DNA from: Kiritimatiellia bacterium
GTDB taxonomy: Bacteria > Verrucomicrobiota > Kiritimatiellia > JAAZAB01
Assembly (NCBI GenBank): GCA_040767085.1
Contig: JAXGPF010000005.1
Span: 96,001-160,000 of the forward strand
Length of the DNA: 64,000 nucleotides
Direction: 5' to 3'
Each line of letters opens with the position of its first letter. Within the stretch, counting starts at the first letter, position 1. The translations under genes were made by a program, and so were the position numbers. The notes under the pieces were generated by a model. The model did not search any database and was not told the origin of the DNA. It saw only the letters and a list, made by a program, of their open reading frames with translations. Positions 44,027-52,074 of the stretch are shown here, piece after piece.

Positions 44027-44122
44027 GGTTACGTGGTAAATTATCCGAATCTTCTTTGTGACTTTGCGTCGTTGTGAGAGAATCAAGCGGTTTTTTATAG
44101 GATGCTGCTGAAATGAACAACA

Positions 44123-44194
44123 TGAAACGTATTTGAAACGCAATGAAACGTATTTGAAACGTAAATGAAACGAATATGAAACGTATTTGGAACG
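44123..44194 (+). repeat. Phased heptamer array TGAAACG x7
   Basis: Starts at 44123, 44134, 44144, 44155, 44166, 44177, 44188 (last is TGGAACG). Confidence 0.9.
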
Positions 44195-44475
44195 AATGCG
44201 GATCAAGCGCCGGATGTTAGCGTGTCCGGCAGGGCATATTCATGCCGCCTGATTCCGATCAGCCTATAACTTGGTTCCCGGCGGTTTCTGCTGGCGTTGC
44301 GGGACACCGCCTGTTATAGTCAAAACTGCGTGTTTACCACTGATTGTATCGCCGGCCTGCCGCGCGGCAAAGGCGGACGTGCCGCGTCTTGGCCTCGCCA
44401 TGCGAGGTGAAGACGGAAGCAGGTCGAGCAAGAGCAGGACGATAGCTGCTCCAGGTATCGCATAGGACGGACGTA

Positions 44476-44586
44476 ATGCCCCAGATATTCGACAACATCG
44501 AAAAGCAACTCCTGAAAGCCCTTGACGAAGCGCTGGGGCTCTCGGATAGCCGATCTACAAGCCAAGATCACTATGCTTGTGCGTGA
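44476..44586 (+). pseudogene. N-terminal stub of a PLD-nuclease/SNF2 helicase-type gene
   Basis: MPQIFDNIEKQLLKALDEALGLSD..., resembling from memory the MPRIFDNI..LL.AL...L..SDRADFCVGYF start of these helicases; AGGA RBS upstream. Confidence 0.6.
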
Positions 44587-44776
44587 ACAGAAACAGACCG
44601 GCCGGACAGAGACCCAGAGTTTCAAAACACAGCTCTCCAAGCCCATCATCGACGAGATTGACAAGGTTCTCGCCAAGCACTATGGCTTCACTGACGAGGA
44701 ACTGGATTTCCTCATCAACTACGACATCAAATACCGCATGGGCCGCAACGGCGGGGAGGAGGATGCGGAAGGATGA
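44549..44776 (+). pseudogene. C-terminal stub of an Eco57I/type IIG-like DNA methyltransferase
   Basis: QKQTGRTETQSFK.QLSKPIIDEIDKVLAKHYGFTDEELDFLINYDIKYRMG; no catalytic motifs and no good start. Confidence 0.7.
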
Positions 44777-45897
44777 AGGCGGAAGCGCATGCCTACGATC
44801 CGGCGCTTCATCACCGGCATTCGATCCGGATGCGCGGACATGATTATGCCGGTGGCGGGATGTATTTTATTACGCTGTGCGTCGCCGCCTACCGCCCGTT
44901 GTTTGGCACAGTAGTGCATGGACGCATGGTTTTAAACGAGGCCGGGCGCAAGGCAGCGGCGTGCTGGCGTGATATTCCGGCGCATTTCCCCGGGGCCACC
45001 CTGGACGAATGGATCGTTATGCCGGATCATGTGCACGGGATTTTGCGGGTGGGCACGACATGTCGTGCTCATCTGATTCCGGCATTCGGCCGCCCGATTT
45101 CCGGCGCTCTGGGGACAATCATCGGCGCCTATAAAGGCGCCGCCACGCGCGCCATTCGAGGCACGGCATGCTGTGCCCCTTACCCGACACGCACGGGTTT
45201 GGCATGCCAAACCCCGCCGATTTGGCAACGCAATTATTACGATATTATCATCCAGGATTCGCGCGCATTGAACAACATCCGCCGCTATATCCGCGACAAT
45301 CCTGCCCATTGGGATGCCCTGCGTTACGGTGCGCCGCGCTTCTTTGCGGGCAATCGGGCGCTGCTGGATTTGCCCCTGACCGCCTTTCTGGCATCCCGCC
45401 GTACGGGTTTGGCATGCCAAACCCCTGCCCAATCCCCTGCGACATGCCATACGGGTTTGGCATGCCAAACCCCTGCCCAATCCCCTGCCGCGGCATGTGG
45501 CCCTGCGACATGGCCCGAACGCCCCGCCTGTGTGATTGGCGGATTTCTCTCCCCCATGGAACGGGCCGTTTTCGATGCCTGCCTTGCCGACTACATACCC
45601 ATGGTGTGGATTCTGGCGCGGGGGTTGGGGCTTGGCATGCCAAGCCCCTGCGGACGGATGCGGCGGGCTCTTGATGCCGGTCGGCTTCTGATCATGACGC
45701 CCTTCGATGACACCGTGCGCGGCTTCAGCGCCGCCCGTGCCGGCTGGTGCAATGAATACGCCCTGCATCTGGCCTCCAGCGCAGTCGTCGGCTATCTTGC
45801 GCCTGATGGTATGCTGGCATGTTTACTGGCGGACTTACGCCGTGACATCTCGATTAGCTATCTTGAAAGTCAACCCGCCAGTGAGGCTCACCCATGA
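44773..45897 (+). mobile_element. REP-associated tyrosine transposase (RAYT, Y1 HUH) fused to a C-terminal DprA/Smf-like SLOG domain
   Basis: HHRHSIRMRGHDY..YFITLC, MPDHVHGIL (HUH), IWQRNYYD, YIRDNP; then AGNRALLD..AFLASR..VIGGFLSPME..LARG..GRLLIMTPF..A...N. Confidence 0.85.
45051..45648. repeat. Six CATG-centred intragenic palindromes (REP-like)
   Basis: 45051-70, 45160-77, GGGTTTGGCATGCCAAACCC at 45195, 45405 and 45453, GGGGCTTGGCATGCCAAGCCCC at 45627. Confidence 0.9.
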
Positions 45898-46025
45898 TCG
45901 AGAACAACCCCGGGAACATGGGAGACCACGGACGCCGGAAAGACTCGACTCAAGGAGAACAAGCGAGAATGCGAGACGCCTCTGGGAAGGGGGAAGCCCC
46001 CATCCAAGCGCAAGAGGGGGAAGTC

Positions 46026-46595
46026 ATGACTTCAATCGAGAAGACGAGACGGCCCAGTATTCAAACACTCGGCGATACCGCCATCCTTGACCGCCGCATG
46101 ATCGCGCTGTTTTGTTCGTCCAAGTGCCCCGGAAAACTGATCCTCGACACCTATGACCTCGCCAAGCAGTTCCGGGAGCAAGGCGTCACTGTCATCAGCG
46201 GCTTCCATTCACCGATGGAAGAGGAATGCTTGCGCATTCTGCTCCGCTCCCCCCATCCGGTCGTCTGGTGTCTTGCCCGTGGTATGTTCAAGCGCATCCC
46301 CTCGAAGCCGGTGGACTGCCGCGCCGCTATCGCCGATGGTCGGCTCCTGATTGTCTCCCCGTTCAAGGAGAATGTCTGCCGCGTCACCGCCAAAACCGCC
46401 ATGGCCCGCAATCGTATCGTCGCTGATCTGGCCGAGGCCGTGGTCATCGCCCACGCCGCCCCCGGCAGCAAGATCGAGGCCCTAACTCTCGAACTCCTCG
46501 TGGAGGAAAAACCGATTTACACTTTCGACCATCCCGCAAATGCGGCCATTCTCGACCGCGGCGCAAGAGACGTTGGCCGTCTTGCGTGGCATTGA
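46026..46595 (+). CDS. Stand-alone DprA/Smf-like SLOG domain protein (start 46026 or 45894)
   Basis: LGDTAILD..ALFCSSKCP..VISGFHSPMEEE..LARG..LIVSPF..AMARNRIVADLAEAVVIAHA. Confidence 0.8.
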   Translation: MTSIEKTRRPSIQTLGDTAILDRRMIALFCSSKCPGKLILDTYDLAKQFREQGVTVISGFHSPMEEECLRILLRSPHPVVWCLARGMFKRIPSKPVDCRAAIADGRLLIVSPFKENVCRVTAKTAMARNRIVADLAEAVVIAHAAPGSKIEALTLELLVEEKPIYTFDHPANAAILDRGARDVGRLAWH

Positions 46596-47323: not shown

Positions 47324-49270
47324 TCAGCTTACCCGTCCGGCTAAAATCCGCTCCAATTCGCGGCAATCCCGGCGTAAATCAGCATCCGCGATCCCGCCGG
47401 ACGCGGCGGCTGCGCCGCCGTATGCCGCGTCAAAATGGCGCTGATAGATGGAGGCCAGCATCTTGACGTCAGGCGCCGGCAACTTGATCCGCGGCAGCAT
47501 TTCCCCTAATTCTTTCGGCGTCAAAGCGGCGGTGTTGACCTCAAAACGCGCGGCCAGCACGGCGCGGATCATGTCGCAAATCGCGCCGGGCTCCCCAGCC
47601 GCGGCGCCGCTGCGTTGCAGGCGGCGCAGGCGCCGGCGGGCCGCCGTCAATACCCGGCGCCGCCGGCGGACGGATGCTGTCCGCCGGCGCCAGGCAAAAT
47701 ATTGCTGCACGGCCAACACCAAAATGTAACCAGCCGGCCCCGCCAGGACAACGATCCAGAGCCGCGGCCGGCCGAACAAATTTACCGACCCGGCGCCGGA
47801 CGCCGTCAGCCAGGGCGGCGCCGGTGTCAGTTCCGTATCCGGCACTTCCGGTTGGATCCCATTCACCGCCGTTGTAGCGCTGATGATCTGCTCCGCGGTC
47901 ACTTCCGCGCCCGGCCGCACATCCAGCGGCACCGGCGCGGTCCGGCGTACCGCGTACGCGCGGGCGGCGGTGTCATAGTAAGCCAATTCCAGGGGGGGCA
48001 CTTCCAACATGCCGGCGCGGCGGGGGCGGATGGTGTACACGAAGCGGCGCTGTGTTGGCGAATCGGCAAAAGTCTGGACGGTCTGGTCGTAAACCGAAAA
48101 ATTTTCCAGAAGATTGGTCTGCGTTTCCAGCCTGGGCGGCAGCATGCGGTCAAACCGCAAATGCCCGGTGACCGTCAAGGTCAGCCGCACCGGATCGCCG
48201 GCATTGCAGGTCAGGCAATCCAGGGATGCCGCGGCTTGCAGGTTCGTGCCCAGGGTCCCGGTGAAGGAAGCCGGCCGGCCGGCTTCCGGTGGCGGCACCA
48301 CCCGCACCGTAACCGCGCGGCCTACCGCGAAAATATCGCGCCCTGAGGCATTCCCGGCATCATCCACAGACACGGGAATGCTGCCTTTGAAAGTCGCCGG
48401 CCCGAACACATAATCGCCCTCCTCCTCGGGGGTATATTGCAATTCCAACTGGTACTCGAAATACGGCTGACCGTCCACCTCCACCATGCGCCGGGGCAGA
48501 ACGAAGCGGGCCCGGCGCGGCTGGCCGAAGGCTTCGAAAAATCCGCGGAAACTGAAAGGATCGTCCGCCAGGGTATATTCATTGATGTTTACGCCGGGCT
48601 GGTTGTCATGCCGGGCCAGGAGCCGCCGCAGCACATCCTGCATGGATGGCCCGCGCAAGCCGGCAATGGGATTATTATCCAGGAAGGGGGCCTGCAGCCG
48701 CGGGGGATTATCCGGAAACAGCGGGTCAACTTCGGCGAAACGGCCGGTGAGCGCGCGGATGCGCAGGCGCAGCCGCACCGTAAACGGCTCATCCGCCAGC
48801 ACCGTCTCGCGCGAAGCTTCCACGGCGAGCTGCACCTCGTCCTGCGGGGTGATATCCGTCACCGTCACTTCCGGGCCCGCCGCTTCCAGGCGCCGGCCGT
48901 CCGCCTCCAGCGCCACCGGCCCGGCCCGGAACACTCCCGCGCGGCGCGGGGTGACTTCGTAACTGACCACCCGGCCGGAAAAGCCCTCGCGCACCATGCG
49001 GCCGTTGATAATAGTAAAGGAGAAATTGCTGTACTCGCGGCTGTCCAGCAGCCGCACTGCGGCATCGGCAATGCCGGAGACATCCGGCTCCACCGGCTGG
49101 TCGGCGCCGGAAATTTTCACCTGCAGGATGAAAGACTCCCCGATGTAAATCCGCTGGCGGTTGGCCGTCGCTTCCAGGGCGACTTCCGCCCGGACCGCGG
49201 CGGCGCCCAGCAGCGCCGCCAACATGCCCACCGTCAATTTCCGGATGATATGCATGCGGCATTTCACCAA
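47324..49270 (-). CDS. batD: BatD family protein
   Basis: IYIGESF, TIINGRM, PASFTG..G, YYDTAARAY, C-terminal TM; operon position. Confidence 0.8.
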   Translation of the reverse strand: MVKCRMHIIRKLTVGMLAALLGAAAVRAEVALEATANRQRIYIGESFILQVKISGADQPVEPDVSGIADAAVRLLDSREYSNFSFTIINGRMVREGFSGRVVSYEVTPRRAGVFRAGPVALEADGRRLEAAGPEVTVTDITPQDEVQLAVEASRETVLADEPFTVRLRLRIRALTGRFAEVDPLFPDNPPRLQAPFLDNNPIAGLRGPSMQDVLRRLLARHDNQPGVNINEYTLADDPFSFRGFFEAFGQPRRARFVLPRRMVEVDGQPYFEYQLELQYTPEEEGDYVFGPATFKGSIPVSVDDAGNASGRDIFAVGRAVTVRVVPPPEAGRPASFTGTLGTNLQAAASLDCLTCNAGDPVRLTLTVTGHLRFDRMLPPRLETQTNLLENFSVYDQTVQTFADSPTQRRFVYTIRPRRAGMLEVPPLELAYYDTAARAYAVRRTAPVPLDVRPGAEVTAEQIISATTAVNGIQPEVPDTELTPAPPWLTASGAGSVNLFGRPRLWIVVLAGPAGYILVLAVQQYFAWRRRTASVRRRRRVLTAARRRLRRLQRSGAAAGEPGAICDMIRAVLAARFEVNTAALTPKELGEMLPRIKLPAPDVKMLASIYQRHFDAAYGGAAAASGGIADADLRRDCRELERILAGRVS

Positions 49271-52074
49271 TCGCGATCCGTCGGCGACAGCGGCGCGTAC
49301 TGGCGCTGTTGTCGCTGGCGGTATTCTTTTTCACGTTCAGCCGCCCTTTGCAGCAGCCGGAGCGCCTGTTCCGGAGTCATCTCTTGCTGGTCGTCTTCCT
49401 CAGCCGTCTCCGCGGCCGCTTGCTCGTTCGTCTCGGCCGACTGCGGCTGTTCCGGCTGTTCCTGTTCCGGTTGCTCCTGTTTTTCCTCCGGCTTCTGCTC
49501 TTCTTCCGGCTTCTGCTCTTCTTCCTGACCATCAGATTGCGGCTGGTCCTGCTTTTCCTGATCCTGTTGCTGCTGGTCCTGTTTCTGCTGCTGGTCCTGT
49601 TGCTGCTTATCCTGTTTCTGCTGGTCCTGTTTCTGCTGGTCCTGGCCCTGCTGCTGGTCCTGCTGCGGCGGGGGCGGCGGGGGCGGCGGCAGAAGTTTTT
49701 GGATGGCTTGGAGCAGATCGCGGCTGTTTTGCTGGGCGCTGCGCGCCGCCGGCCAATCGGGTTTGTTCAAGGCTGATAGCGCCTTCTGCTGGCGGTCAAC
49801 GGCTTCCCGGGCGAGTTTGACGATATTGGCGCGCTTTTCGGCGCTGATGCCCTGCTCCGGGTCGACCGGCTGGCCATCCGGCGCGGGCGGCGGCGGCGCG
49901 CCGGTTTCCGGCACGGCATTCGTAAACCGATCCAGAAACAATTCCGTCAGGACCTGGGTCTCCGCCTGATCGTCGCGGATGGCATCCGCCTGGGACGACG
50001 GATCCTCTTCGGAAAGAGCTTGCGCCAGGGCGTTAGTCTGGCGCAGCAGTCCTTCCTGCAAGAGAGCGGGATACGGCGCCAAGGCTTTCCAGAAGTTGTA
50101 CACCCCGCCGGCGGCCGTGCCGGCCGCTTCCGGCGCGCGCGGATCCAGATCGCGCAGCCGCGTCCGCGTTTGCAGCATGGCATCCTGCAAGGCCTGAAAA
50201 TACAAATCCAATTGCGGCGGCGCATTGGTGGCGCTGCCGGTTTCCAGCGCCAGCCGCAACGGTCCCAGCAGATCGGCGGCGTCGCGCTGGCGCTCCGCCA
50301 AGGCCTCCAGGCGTTCAATGCGGGCTGGCGGCGCCGCGGTCAAGGCCGCCACGCTTTCCGCGGCAATGGCGCGCTGGCGGCGCAGGATTTCATCCGTCAG
50401 TTCGGCCGGGGGCTTTTCGCCGTATTGCTTAAACACTTTTTGCAGGCGGGCCTGCTCGCGCTCCCGGGGCAACACCTCGGCCACGGCCTCCAGGGCAGCG
50501 CTCGCATCGCCGCCATTGCCGTTGACGTGGGCAGCCTGCTGGAATGCCTGGGCGGCGTTTTCCAGCCTGGCAATCCGGTCGGCCGGCTGGATATCCGGCG
50601 CGTTGGTGGCCGCGGCAGCGGCCGCGCCGGCGGCCGCCTGCCACCAGGCGCCGCCCTGGTTATACAACGCATCGGCATCCGCCGGTCCGGCCTGGCGGGC
50701 GGCCGTTGCGAACAGATCCGCTGCCTCCTGGTAAGCGCAGGCGCGATAGAGGGCGCAGGCGGCATTGTACAGCAAGGTATTGCGCAATTGCCGTTCCGCC
50801 GTATCGGAGCGCGGGGACGTCCCGGGCGCATCGCCGGCGGCCTGCCGCCAGGCCTCGGCCGCGGCCTGGTAATTGCCGGATTGATATAAGCGCCAGGCGC
50901 GCGCAGCTTCCGCGCGCCGATCGGGCGCCGTGACCGGCGCGGGCGGGGCGGATTCGGCGGCCGGCGGCGCCGGGGGATTGGTTTCCGCGCCGGCGGATAG
51001 CGCCGTCCCCGCCAGCAAGACCAGGAATGCCGCGGCTGGTCCGCCCCGGCGGCGTGTCCCTGCGGCGGACGGCGGCCTGGGCGCGGCCGGCCGGCCGCGG
51101 CTCAACCCCGCCGCCAGCAGGAAAGCCATGAGCGCCGGCGCCAGGAACCACTGGAATCGCTCCACCATGCCGCGCCGGGAAGTCTCTTCCAGGTCGCGGG
51201 CGGAAATCGCGCGCAGGTGATCGTGGTAAAGCGCGTCCAACCGGACGTTGGAAAGTCCCACCGGCACGTATGCCCCGCCGGTGGCTTCCGCGATGTTTTT
51301 CAAGGTGGCATGGTCGAGGCGGGTAGCCACCTGCCCGCCCTTATACAAGACCTGCCCGCCCGGCGCGCGGTCATCCGGAATGGGCGCGCCGGCGGCATCG
51401 CCCAAGCCCACCGTAAAAATGACGATGCCCGCCCGCGCCGCTTCCGCGGCGGATTCCGACGCCCGGCCGGCGAGGTCCTCGCCGTCGGAGATCAGGATAA
51501 TCGCCCGATGCGAGCCGGCTTCCTCGCCGAACGCTTCGGCCGCCTTGCGGATGGCATCGGCCAGATCCGTCTCGCCGGGCGGCGCGGAATCAACCGTCAT
51601 CTCGGCCAACGCCGTCTCCATGAAGCTGTAATCGGTGGTGAGCGGGCAGAGCAGCACCGCGCGCCCGCGGAAAGCCACCAACGCCACGCGGTCGCCCTGC
51701 AGGGCGCGCAGCAAATCCATGACATCGGCGCGCGCGCGTTCCAGCCGGCTGGGTTGAACATCGCGCGCCAGCATGGACCGGGAAACGTCCAGGGCAATCA
51801 CCAGGTCGCGGCCGCGCTGCAGTACGCGCTCATCGCGGTACCCCCAGCGCGGCGCGGCGGCGGCCAGCAGCGTCAGCAGCAACCCGGTCAGCACGGCCGC
51901 GAACTGCGCGCGGCGCCGCCAGCGCGCCGGCGCCGGCAGGATTTTTGCGCGCAAGGATGCGTCCACCAACCCGGCCAGCCGCCGGTCGCCGCGCCGGTGC
52001 AGCGCCCAGAGCAAGGCGGCGAACAACGGCGCACCCCACAGCAGAAACAAAACCCATGGTTCGCCAAAATGCAT
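49264..52074 (-). CDS. BatB/BatC-like fusion (vWA + TPR + Gln-rich linker)
   Basis: DVSRSM MIDAS, PLTTDY, ISDGED, YN TPR motifs, QDQQQ repeats, C-terminal DRDW. Confidence 0.85.
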   Translation of the reverse strand: MHFGEPWVLFLLWGAPLFAALLWALHRRGDRRLAGLVDASLRAKILPAPARWRRRAQFAAVLTGLLLTLLAAAAPRWGYRDERVLQRGRDLVIALDVSRSMLARDVQPSRLERARADVMDLLRALQGDRVALVAFRGRAVLLCPLTTDYSFMETALAEMTVDSAPPGETDLADAIRKAAEAFGEEAGSHRAIILISDGEDLAGRASESAAEAARAGIVIFTVGLGDAAGAPIPDDRAPGGQVLYKGGQVATRLDHATLKNIAEATGGAYVPVGLSNVRLDALYHDHLRAISARDLEETSRRGMVERFQWFLAPALMAFLLAAGLSRGRPAAPRPPSAAGTRRRGGPAAAFLVLLAGTALSAGAETNPPAPPAAESAPPAPVTAPDRRAEAARAWRLYQSGNYQAAAEAWRQAAGDAPGTSPRSDTAERQLRNTLLYNAACALYRACAYQEAADLFATAARQAGPADADALYNQGGAWWQAAAGAAAAAATNAPDIQPADRIARLENAAQAFQQAAHVNGNGGDASAALEAVAEVLPREREQARLQKVFKQYGEKPPAELTDEILRRQRAIAAESVAALTAAPPARIERLEALAERQRDAADLLGPLRLALETGSATNAPPQLDLYFQALQDAMLQTRTRLRDLDPRAPEAAGTAAGGVYNFWKALAPYPALLQEGLLRQTNALAQALSEEDPSSQADAIRDDQAETQVLTELFLDRFTNAVPETGAPPPPAPDGQPVDPEQGISAEKRANIVKLAREAVDRQQKALSALNKPDWPAARSAQQNSRDLLQAIQKLLPPPPPPPPQQDQQQGQDQQKQDQQKQDKQQQDQQQKQDQQQQDQEKQDQPQSDGQEEEQKPEEEQKPEEKQEQPEQEQPEQPQSAETNEQAAAETAEEDDQQEMTPEQALRLLQRAAEREKEYRQRQQRQYAPLSPTDRDW
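49440..49690 (-). repeat. Low-complexity coding repeats (polyP, QDQQK, EEQKP)
   Basis: ctgctggtcctg and ttctgctcttcttcc tandem units on the + strand. Confidence 0.8.

Follow-up and report, generated by a model that had tools for sequence, protein, structure and literature searches.

A REP-associated transposase-like protein joined to a DprA-type domain and carrying in-frame palindromes in a Kiritimatiellia bacterium

The genes considered here lie in a window of 64,000 nucleotides, the whole stretch of Kiritimatiellia bacterium DNA that was analysed. They comprise the remnant of a type IIG restriction enzyme-methyltransferase gene, a gene joining an intact Y1/HUH domain of the RAYT (TnpA_REP) type to a DprA-type Rossmann (SLOG) domain, and a stand-alone DprA-like SLOG gene (Table 1). 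The preliminary description had read the second of these as a single ORF uniting the two domains. This is confirmed: the frame is open over its 374 residues and contains the quoted motifs HVH, WQRNYYD, and YIRDNP, and the overlap of its start with the stop of the remnant (ATGA, 44773-44776) is real. The product is a predicted hairpin-cutting ssDNA enzyme (a REP-associated transposase) supplemented by a DprA-type domain. A 20-nt perfect palindrome, missed in that description, occurs in four in-frame copies within the same ORF. The island has a G+C content of 0.573, vs. about 0.63 in its surroundings. Scans around the locus with Rfam (6 kb, E≤1) and for tRNAs, promoters, and terminators returned nothing meaningful, and PADLOC found nothing at E≤10 in the ORFs at 44253-44465 (70 aa) and 44476-44586 (36 aa).

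Table 1. Genes, domains, motifs, and palindromes at the locus (window positions; a dot marks a feature without strand).
Feature	Position	Strand	Basis or remark
Type IIG restriction enzyme-methyltransferase remnant, C-terminal 84 aa	44522..44776	+	PADLOC REase_MTase_IIG
RAYT-SLOG fusion gene	44773..45897	+	374 aa, uninterrupted ORF
Y1/HUH domain (RAYT, TnpA_REP-type), residues 1-186	44773..45330	+	NCBIfam REP_Tyr_transpos E 1.3e-13; fold 4er8, 2xm3, 2vju
HUH motif H86/H88	45028-45036	+	within PDHVHG
REP-like perfect palindrome, copy 1, 20 nt	45195..45214	.	residues 141-148, loop before the W/Y motifs
W motif W151		+	within WQRNYYD
Catalytic Tyr172	45286-45288	+	within YIRDNP (45286-45303)
DprA-type Rossmann (SLOG) domain, residues 187-368	45331..45876	+	hhalign, profile vs. 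3uqz, Foldseek
REP-like palindrome, copy 2	45405..45424	.	SLOG strand1-strand2 loop; in 48-nt tandem unit
REP-like palindrome, copy 3	45453..45472	.	second unit of the 48-nt tandem
REP-like palindrome, copy 4, 22-nt variant with two compensated changes	45627..45648	.	in frame, SLOG loop, residues 285-292
Stand-alone DprA-like SLOG gene, paralogue of the fused domain	45894..46595	+	233 aa from ATG 45894; Pfam

The AlphaFold model of the fusion (pLDDT 81.5, pTM 0.72) is confident over both domains. According to Foldseek, its RAYT half resembles the TnpA of IS200/IS605 elements (2xm3, E 5.9e-7) and TnpA_REP (4er8, E 3.5e-6, TMt 0.62). Among 116 fusion homologues, H86, H88, W151, Y172, and N176 are invariant and P177 is nearly so. 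The profile matches, with NCBIfam NF047646 (REP_Tyr_transpos, 51.1 bits for a cut-off of 80) and Pfam PF01797 (Y1_Tnp, E 1e-3, 19.7 bits for a cut-off of 23), remain below the curated cut-offs because the in-frame inserts interrupt the match to the model. Of the two Pfam families expected from the preliminary description, Y1_Tnp is therefore detected in the fusion below its threshold and DNA_processg_A is not detected there; the latter does match the stand-alone SLOG gene (E 1.3e-12, 47.8 bits, above the cut-off of 29.6).

The C-terminal half of the window fusion protein has no match in Pfam, and PF02481 (DNA_processg_A) recognises only 8 of the 116 family members at E≤0.01. The SLOG fold that had been proposed for it is upheld by several comparisons. 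BLASTP aligns the fused domain with the next ORF (34% identity over 126 aa, E 3e-16), which also bears out the claim that the two are paralogues. Profile-profile alignment by hhalign relates residues 186-368 to the stand-alone SLOG family (probability 99.5%, E 2.3e-22), and the fusion-family profile matches Streptococcus pneumoniae DprA (3uqz, E 4.3e-5) with the strand-1 and SG motifs aligned. Structurally, Foldseek ranks ShosA (8zva, E 6.2e-7) first for the tail, with further matches to DprA (3uqz, 4.6e-4; 4ljl; and others) and YpsA 2nx2. The tail retains the N-terminal strand signature of DprA, ending in Ser-Arg, and S208, R209, S260, E263, and N327 are invariant in the 116 homologues; the first helix of the domain is absent, with a variable loop in its place. 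The full-length DprA equivalogs TIGR00732 and PRK10736 do not match the fusion, and the PADLOC PsyrA model does so weakly (2e-3).

The fusion is not confined to one assembly, a point on which the preliminary description depended. Homologue searches returned 670 matches at E≤1e-3, and among the 120 clusters listed, drawn from several sources, 115 span at least 93% of the query without indels except in four loops. At least 11 genome loci encode it: the 80 related loci listed comprise 11 full-length fusions, from Verrucomicrobiota, Kiritimatiellota, and Lentisphaerota, and 69 stand-alone RAYTs. These listed loci include neither the genome of the window nor its nearest relatives, and the best fusion locus among them is 37-44% identical to the window protein. 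At the 11 fusion loci, 132-151 residues follow the Y motif, vs. a median of 8 and a maximum of 54 in the stand-alone ORFs. In a tree of the RAYT domains, all but one of the 12 fusions group in a single clade (SH-aLRT 98), and a constraint grouping all 12 is not rejected (p-AU 0.984, lnL +42.5); the sequences are thus compatible with a single origin of a fusion clade nested within stand-alone RAYTs. A look-up in the ESM Atlas gave PVC-type clusters of 54-133 members, to be taken as leads only. No description of a RAYT-DprA fusion was found in the literature, and the words "DprA", "Smf", and "Rossmann" do not occur in the available text of the subclass survey of Quentin, Siguier, Chandler, and Fichant (2018, PMC6006769). 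As that text mentions discarding a few unexpectedly long proteins, RAYT-SLOG fusions may have been noticed and set aside there.

Within the window, four matches to the palindrome are observed where 0.05 are expected, and all of them fall inside the fusion ORF; none occurs in the other 63 kb even with 3 mismatches allowed, the 64 kb being a small sample of the genome. Copy 1 folds as a DNA hairpin at -9.4 kcal/mol and encodes a loop of low pLDDT. Copies 2 and 3 can form a 20-bp REPIN-like stem (-23.6 kcal/mol, z -5.1). All four sites correspond to surface loops of low model confidence, where the length of homologues varies with a standard deviation of 12.3, 6.1, 10.8, and 1.8 aa, respectively, vs. 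at most 1.1 aa elsewhere.

The same organisation is found in related genes. Counting stems of at least 9 bp, the 12 fusion genes (the window gene and those of the 11 listed loci) hold 20 palindromes in 12.7 kb, vs. 30 in 222 kb outside them (1.57 vs. 0.135 per kb, Poisson P 4e-15). At least one is present in 11 of the 12, the exception (L013) having only an 8-bp stem, and related copies lie just beyond the gene at four loci (L001, L005, L007, and L065). The palindromes of the relatives differ from those of the window and occupy the same sites. They also differ between two fusions of one MAG (L002 and L004), and the repeated peptide is another one in a presumed paralogue of the window fusion (P0027, 54% identical). 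Furthermore, in 53 of the 69 listed stand-alone relatives a palindrome lies within the gene, at a constant spot after HUH, and is often identical to flanking copies. The guide sequence of Quentin et al. (2018, PMC6006769) is GT[AG]G, and E. coli TnpA_REP is reported to cleave at a GTAG motif (Di Nocera et al. 2013, PMC3733652). This foot is present at the 5' side of 40 of 60 palindromes of the stand-alone relatives, 33 of the 60 having both feet, vs. none of the 20 palindromes of the fusion genes.

The "REP-propagating element" branch of the preliminary description is thereby strongly supported, with four in-frame palindromes in the window gene and others inside or beside its relatives. The conserved RAYT-SLOG fusion and the adjacent paralogue of that description also stand, its ssDNA capture-and-cleave function is a prediction, and neither its restriction-like operon nor a regular partnership with the free SLOG is supported. 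The element is probably a "REPtron", i.e., a Y1/HUH REP-associated transposase of the subclass 2.4 clade that gained a DprA-type domain in a lineage of the PVC group. The enzyme would recognise its own palindrome as a hairpin on ssDNA, for instance at a replication fork, and would cut and rejoin the strand beside it, by analogy with E. coli TnpA_REP. The DprA-like domain would grip the flanking single strand, and may also confer dimerisation or recruit RecA; the DprA-like Rossmann domain of ShosA has been reported to bind ssDNA in EMSA, as does DprA (PMC11961720). Such strand holding could offset the missing GT[AG]G guide. The palindromes within the gene would have arisen by insertion or duplication of the cognate REP and would persist in permissive loops alone, and the type IIG tail would be debris of a restriction-modification (RM) gene formerly upstream. 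Several observations weigh against the REPtron reading: the palindromes of the fusion clade have no GT[AG]G foot, the window shows no copy outside the gene, the RAYT scores are below the curated cut-offs, and the window protein reads DHVH where subclass 2.4 is described with NH[IFV]H.

The gene neighbourhood bears on another reading, that of an accessory to defence or RM systems. As last gene of an operon, the fusion would act on foreign ssDNA (rolling-circle, conjugative, or phage), with the SLOG domain as sensor, the HUH domain as effector, and the palindromes as a secondary feature. The remnant upstream matches the very end of the PADLOC REase_MTase_IIG model (E 3.8e-23, positions 1031-1097 of 1100, its last 67), with nothing found for its 84 residues in Pfam or NCBIfam. 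The start of the fusion overlaps the upstream stop in 6 of 12 loci (the window and the 11 listed). Besides the type IIG tail, the upstream partners are an HTH-SNF2 helicase-NOV_C protein (L001, L005, and L007), a type I specificity subunit (L013), and a 580-aa ORF without a family (L012). At L001, the helicase is HmaA-like (PADLOC, 4e-148) and a Ppl-like AAA_21/SMC_N ATPase lies downstream (7.5e-27), beyond a 450-aa ORF, while nSTAND and HsdM genes are found downstream at L002. RM or defence-type genes thus adjoin 5 of the 11 listed fusion loci, and the free SLOG matches the antitoxin models PsyrA and ShosA, the former matching the fusion weakly. These neighbours and overlaps suit an accessory gene of an operon no less than a selfish one. 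Against the accessory reading, the remaining 6 of the 11 loci have housekeeping surroundings (DNA polymerase III alpha/IlvD, an aminoacyl-tRNA synthetase, Lon, a hydrogenase, glycoside hydrolases). The "restriction-like operon" of the preliminary description likewise reduces to the 84-aa tail, with no intact RM or defence gene in the window and housekeeping genes around it. Selfish and mobile genes pile up in defence islands regardless, no PADLOC system model takes in the fusion, and gene-specific palindromes, divergent paralogues, and nesting among REP-associated RAYTs are hallmarks of REPtrons. Taken together, an accessory role in defence is unlikely.

A bolder proposal, and a rather doubtful one, is that the fusion works as a "cut and hand over" machine that cleaves the palindrome and passes the strand to RecA, or that, as a coupled last gene of RM or helicase operons, it converts foreign ssDNA into a substrate for recombination or degradation. 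In the first case, REP processing would be coupled to recombination; in the second, the loss of GT[AG]G would reflect a recognition dependent on the fused domain.

The stand-alone SLOG gene is central to a further alternative. Its 2583 homologues are mostly 185-210 aa long and include a 189-aa form that is 100% identical, so its true start may be ATG 46026 (189 aa) rather than ATG 45894. It matches PsyrA (6e-19, model positions 122-290 of 398) and ShosA (5.2e-7) in PADLOC, and scores below the DprA equivalog cut-offs (TIGR00732, 38.2 vs. 191; PRK10736, 17.5 vs. 495). A tblastn search against plasmids gave no match. We infer that this is a gene in its own right, DprA-like (PsyrA/ShosA-like) and from the sub-family of the fused domain, and it may be the source of that domain or an occasional partner of the fusion. 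The alternative would make the two genes a pair of the toxin/antitoxin kind, with a harmful HUH nuclease gated by DprA-like domains in cis and in trans, in the manner of ShosA/ShosT. The tail's closest fold match, the PADLOC matches, and the adjoining fused and free copies in the window agree with such gating, and both genes apparently occur together again on only three contigs among the matches listed (lengths 5539, 16216, and 11841), as inferred from equal lengths. As to a regular partnership, within flanks of up to 10 kb a free SLOG accompanies none of the 11 listed fusion loci and none of the 69 stand-alone RAYT loci. Modelling of a complex between the fused SLOG (residues 186-374) and the stand-alone one did not support an interaction (score 0.19, mark 0.32), a result that counts neither for nor against pairing. 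PsyrT is a RecQ-like helicase. ShosT, for its part, is described as a PRTase (PMC11961720). In the window, the free SLOG has the RAYT fusion on its upstream side and a convergent ORF without a Pfam family downstream; neither type of toxin gene is among these neighbours. RAYTs are not known as toxins, which adds to making a toxin/antitoxin-like pair improbable.

Finally, a read-through or assembly chimera, in which repeat DNA would bridge a RAYT and a truncated DprA-like gene, deserves next to no credence: the 48-nt tandem repeat in the junction region, the lower G+C, and the gene remnant in the island might hint at it, but it is refuted by the homologue coverage with indels confined to four loops, by the hhalign match, and by conserved residues spanning a junction at which the DprA-like domain starts directly after the RAYT core; a confident model through both domains also speaks against it.

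Domesticated transposases of the RAYT type are widespread, and what they do in the cell is still under debate. Since DprA is a RecA loader that binds single strands as they come in, a conserved fusion of a RAYT to a DprA-like domain is a concrete, testable hint of a link between REP processing and ssDNA handling or recombination. With its two natural domains, the protein also lends itself to studying how a monomeric RAYT finds its substrate. In addition, it extends in-frame REP insertions past the HuH-Y interval, to four fixed loops, some of them in an acquired domain.

Among known systems, the closest is TnpA_Y1 subclass 2.4 (Quentin et al. 2018, PMC6006769), which corresponds to RAYT group 4 (Bertels et al. 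2017, PMC5581495). According to the former, its members have no tail domain, a median length of 194 aa, and the motifs NH[IFV]H, WQ, and YIxNNP, and in-frame REPs inside their genes are already on record. The fusion shares the HUH, WQ, and Y..NP motifs in their general form. Set against the narrower versions, the window protein has WQ and YIRDNP but DHVH in place of NH[IFV]H, and the 10 more distant fusion loci (L065 aside) have NH.H or DHFH, WH/WQ, and YIR.NP. Also in common are a variable insertion after the HUH strand, with an in-frame REP between HuH and Y, REPs both in frame within the gene and beside it, and a low copy number with divergent paralogues each having its own REP; in the tree, the fusion clade nests among stand-alone genes of this type. 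Unlike subclass 2.4, the fusion possesses ~150 extra C-terminal residues forming the DprA-like domain, further insertions ahead of the W motif and within the tail, and palindromes devoid of GT[AG]G / C[TC]AC feet (0/20), and its hosts belong to the three phyla named above. E. coli TnpA_REP (4er8), a hairpin-specific, REP-associated ssDNA nuclease, displays the fold of the RAYT half, whose profile matches its HUH and Y regions. In contrast to the fusion, it is 165 aa long without an extra domain, and its REPs are extragenic, imperfect, and GTAG-tagged. Short in-frame palindromes tolerated in loops of functional proteins have been described as REP/RPE insertions in Rickettsia, in the verrucomicrobium Opitutus terrae, and elsewhere (Di Nocera et al. 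2013, PMC3733652). In the fusion, by contrast, the presumed mobilising enzyme is itself encoded by the host gene, and the same four sites serve throughout the family.

The fused domain has the Rossmann-type SLOG fold of DprA/Smf (3uqz; Helicobacter pylori 4ljl) and ShosA (8zva, 9vzo), with which the Ser-Arg end of strand 1 and the following SG...(I/M)(D/E) segment align. It differs from these proteins by the absence of SAM and winged-helix domains and by a variable loop in place of the first helix. Where the stand-alone paralogue has an Arg-Asn-Arg segment, the fusion has Cys-Asn-Gln/Glu, and while ShosA is paired with a PRTase toxin, the SLOG is here fused to a nuclease. The tails of described RAYT subclasses are absent, of HTH type, or unknown (Quentin et al. 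2018, Table 1). The most conspicuous trait of the sequence, the REP-in-gene phenomenon, has been published before, and the element is not a new kind of system; what is apparently new is the DprA-like tail, the insertions into it, and a GT[AG]G foot lost from the palindromes.

The RAYT-SLOG gene of the window joins, in one ORF, a REP-associated transposase (RAYT) of the Y1/HUH type to a DprA-type domain, and is followed by a paralogous stand-alone SLOG ORF. The preliminary description of this arrangement is confirmed, and all the motifs that it quoted for both ORFs were found. The NCBIfam model REP_Tyr_transpos matches fusion residues 24-178 (E 1.3e-13) with 51.1 bits, below its 80-bit cut-off. 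As 155 fusion residues are aligned to 128 model positions, the RAYT domain holds insertions. The Pfam model Y1_Tnp matches weakly (E 1e-3). His86, His88, Trp151, Tyr172, and Asn176 do not vary among 116 aligned full-length homologues.

The Pfam model DNA_processg_A does not match the window fusion, and only 8 of the 116 fusion-family members match it at E<=0.01. The fused domain shares 34% identity over 126 residues (E 3e-16) with the next ORF, which itself passes DNA_processg_A (47.8 bits vs. a gathering score of 29.6). Profile-profile comparison of the fusion and stand-alone SLOG families yields 99.5% probability (E 2.3e-22), the alignment spanning fusion residues 186-368, i.e., the entire domain including its first strand. 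Against the PDB, the fusion-family profile matches S. pneumoniae DprA (3uqz, E 4.3e-5), pairing the entry strand of DprA, which closes with Ser-Arg, and the SG...(I/M)(D/E) segment after it, as well as TnpA_REP (4er8, E 7.6e-4). An AlphaFold2 model of the fusion, based on the 116-sequence alignment, displays a mean pLDDT of 81.5 and a pTM of 0.72. Foldseek searches of the PDB return IS200/IS605 transposases and TnpA_REP for its first half and, for its second half, ShosA (8zva, E 6.2e-7), DprA (3uqz, 4ljl, 4ljk, 5mll, 3maj), and the SLOG protein YpsA (2nx2). As had been proposed, the second half of the fusion forms a DprA-type SLOG domain: the SLOG fold is found, since four independent lines (paralogue identity, profile-profile comparison, PDB profile, and Foldseek) agree.

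Features of the fusion gene and its surroundings in the window
Feature	Position	Strand	Remarks
11-nt tandem repeat	44122-44194		6.7 copies, 77% matches; alternatively 22 nt x 3
Short ORF	44476-44586		36 codons, ATG start
Type IIG restriction-methyltransferase C-terminal end	44522-44776	+	84-aa ORF upstream of fusion; PADLOC 1031-1097 of 1100, E 3.8e-23
RAYT-SLOG fusion ORF	44773-45897	+	374 codons
20-nt perfect palindrome, copies 1-3	start 45195, 45405, 45453		in frame
22-nt palindrome variant, doubly compensated	start 45627		in frame
Variable segment 1	after HUH strand		10-75 aa
Variable segment 2	before W motif		2-36 aa
Variable segment 3	SLOG strand 1-strand 2 loop		14-64 aa
Variable segment 4	later SLOG loop		6-19 aa
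Stand-alone SLOG ORF	45894-46595	+	233 codons
Long downstream ORF	49264-52074	-	low-complexity tail

The four palindrome copies all fall within the four segments of variable length in homologues, and no further match with up to 3 mismatches occurs in the 64-kb window (4 found vs. 0.05 expected). These segments are predicted as low-confidence coils in the AlphaFold2 model, and the blocks between them hardly vary in length (sd <=1.1). Copies 2 and 3 belong to a 48-nt tandem and, as ssDNA, can pair into a 20-bp stem resembling a REPIN (-23.6 kcal/mol, z -5.1). Homologues carry at the same sites other repeated peptides, which are what different palindromes would encode; the variable sites are 3.3x richer in hexapeptides compatible with codon-symmetric palindromes, at least one of which is present in 79 of the 116 sequences. 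A second RAYT-SLOG paralogue, P0027 (399 aa, 54% identical to the window protein P0001), is encoded outside the window; its repeated peptide at these insertion sites is another one, presumably reflecting a palindrome family of its own. Both proteins come from contigs of equal size (375,777), hence probably from the same one.

Palindromes with a stem of at least 9 bp, 20 in total, are present in 11 of 12 fusion genes, the remaining one (L013) having only an 8-bp stem. Their density reaches 1.57/kb inside the 12 genes vs. 0.135/kb in the flanks (222 kb; Poisson P ~4e-15). At four loci (L001, L005, L007, L065), related palindromes lie immediately outside the gene, and paralogues within a genome differ in palindrome (L002 vs. 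L004; P0001 vs. P0027). Stand-alone relatives show an internal palindrome in 53 of 69 cases, nearly always 260-300 nt into the match, right after HUH, and often identical to gene-flanking copies; density is 1.63/kb inside these genes, 1.07/kb within 300 bp, and 0.135/kb further off.

The fusion is probably, though by no means certainly, a REPtron-type ssDNA nuclease/transposase. E. coli TnpA_REP is described as recognising hairpins and cutting and rejoining beside REPs (PMC3733652). By analogy, the RAYT-SLOG protein would recognise its own palindrome in hairpin form, and Tyr172 would cut and rejoin the DNA beside it. The DprA-type domain would supply ssDNA binding, because DprA and ShosA are ssDNA binders (PMC11961720) and the entry-strand Ser-Arg is invariant here; it may also serve in dimerisation or RecA contact. 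The intragenic palindromes would be cognate REP copies surviving only in permissive loops.

A role as a defence or restriction-modification (RM) accessory is rather unlikely. The RM-remnant stop does overlap the RAYT start (ATGA), as previously noted, and the earlier interpretation is partly supported; "embedded in a restriction-like operon" overstates the case, because the window keeps only the type IIG C-terminal end, with no further RM-system parts around the fusion, among other flanking genes. These encode an FG-GAP protein, MATE and MFS transporters, BirA-like and TilS proteins, and a polysaccharide lyase; downstream come BatD and a von Willebrand-type ORF (the latter label and BirA-like assigned by eye). 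The fusion lies in a ~2.9-kb islet of lower G+C (0.573). In the 0.8 kb before the remnant are found an 11-nt tandem repeat and short unassignable ORFs. The repeat lies between the FG-GAP gene and the remnant, in a stretch of low G+C that is apparently non-coding, matches no Rfam family above threshold, and could be iteron-like or the leftover of a lost element. The 36-codon ORF overlaps the beginning of the type IIG tail in another frame, has no PADLOC match at E<=10, and resembles the 5' remnant of a deleted gene. The long downstream ORF terminates in a tail of very low complexity, rich in Gln/Asp/Lys/Glu/Pro, and the antisense strand of this region yields long spurious ORFs.

Around 11 related fusion loci, 48 of 71 ORFs (>=80 aa, within 4 kb) were scanned, the rest being the 11 fusion ORFs (at L009, its antisense shadow), 9 short ones (<=141 aa), and 3 at the outer limit. 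RM or defence-type neighbours occur at five of the 11 loci, the other six adjoining housekeeping genes. L001, L005, and L007 possess an HTH-SNF2 helicase-NOV_C protein upstream (PADLOC HmaA, 4e-148, in L001); the L013 fusion comes after a type I HsdR and two HsdS genes, and that of L002 before an nSTAND ATPase and HsdM. At 6 of the 12 loci, there is an overlap between the fusion start and the stop codon before it. A conserved ~450-aa ORF lies 3' of the fusion in L001 (10792-12141, besides a downstream AAA_21 ATPase), L005 (10816-12192), and L007 (4647-5999), with no family in Pfam or PADLOC. It is flanked on both sides by palindromes of the fusion-gene family (e.g., L007 4796, 6033).

It is less probable still that the fusion and the free SLOG form a toxin-antitoxin-like pair. 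Two PADLOC antitoxin models, PsyrA (6e-19) and ShosA (5e-7), match the free SLOG; no toxin partner adjoins it in the window, and none of the best 80 loci has a free SLOG gene in its flanks. In close relatives, three clusters of fusions and three of SLOGs agree in contig size (5539, 16216, 11841), which suggests recurrent linkage of both genes. The free SLOG family is large (2583 matches, mostly 185-210 aa).

The fusion is real, and an artefact is effectively excluded: homology search returns 670 proteins (E<=1e-3), and among the 120 listed, 115, the window's own included, reach at least 93% query coverage, being 321-399 aa long and 42-100% identical. Only a few carry a name, which is "transposase", "RayT", or "hypothetical"; the taxa named are Kiritimatiellae and Lentisphaerae. 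Full-length fusions represent 11 of the best 80 loci returned from reference genomes other than the window's own (Verrucomicrobiota, Victivallales, an Akkermansia-labelled MAG, Pontiellaceae, Tichowtungia, Kiritimatiellae); the remaining 69 loci encode stand-alone RAYTs with ~175 matched residues. A tree based on only the RAYT domain (72 rows; 9 of 81 candidates showed no Y motif ahead of a stop and were dropped) groups 11 of the 12 fusions in a single clade (SH-aLRT 98), which is nested within stand-alone genes; L065, the remaining fusion, sits on a very long branch. With all 12 constrained to group together, the likelihood improves (+42.5), and this topology is not rejected (p-AU 0.984); a single origin is therefore compatible with these sequences. 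Several stand-alone loci (L027, L033, L036, L038, L046), left out of the tree, have an early stop in the tblastn-match frame, suggesting frameshifted or decaying copies.

Palindromes in frame within a RAYT gene are already published. Quentin et al. 2018 (PMC6006769) describe TnpA_Y1 subclass 2.4, equivalent to Bertels group 4, with "double foot" REPs (GT[AG]G and its complement) found in frame inside the tnpA_REP gene, in the HuH-Y interval. Di Nocera et al. 2013 (PMC3733652) report in-frame REPs in other genes, including those of the verrucomicrobium Opitutus terrae. Subclass 2.4 is tabulated without a tail (median 194 aa), a few proteins of unexpected length being set aside; the main text of Quentin et al. 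(PMC6006769) does not contain the words DprA, Smf, or Rossmann, and a literature search found no description of a RAYT-DprA-type fusion. The fusion combines a RAYT of the subclass-2.4 type with a so far undescribed DprA-like domain. Its stand-alone relatives resemble subclass 2.4 in their internal palindrome between HUH and Y, and their palindromes bear a 5' foot in 40 of 60 cases and both feet in 33 of 60. In contrast, the palindromes of the fusion clade are devoid of the GT[AG]G foot (0/20), and insertions extend into the acquired domain.
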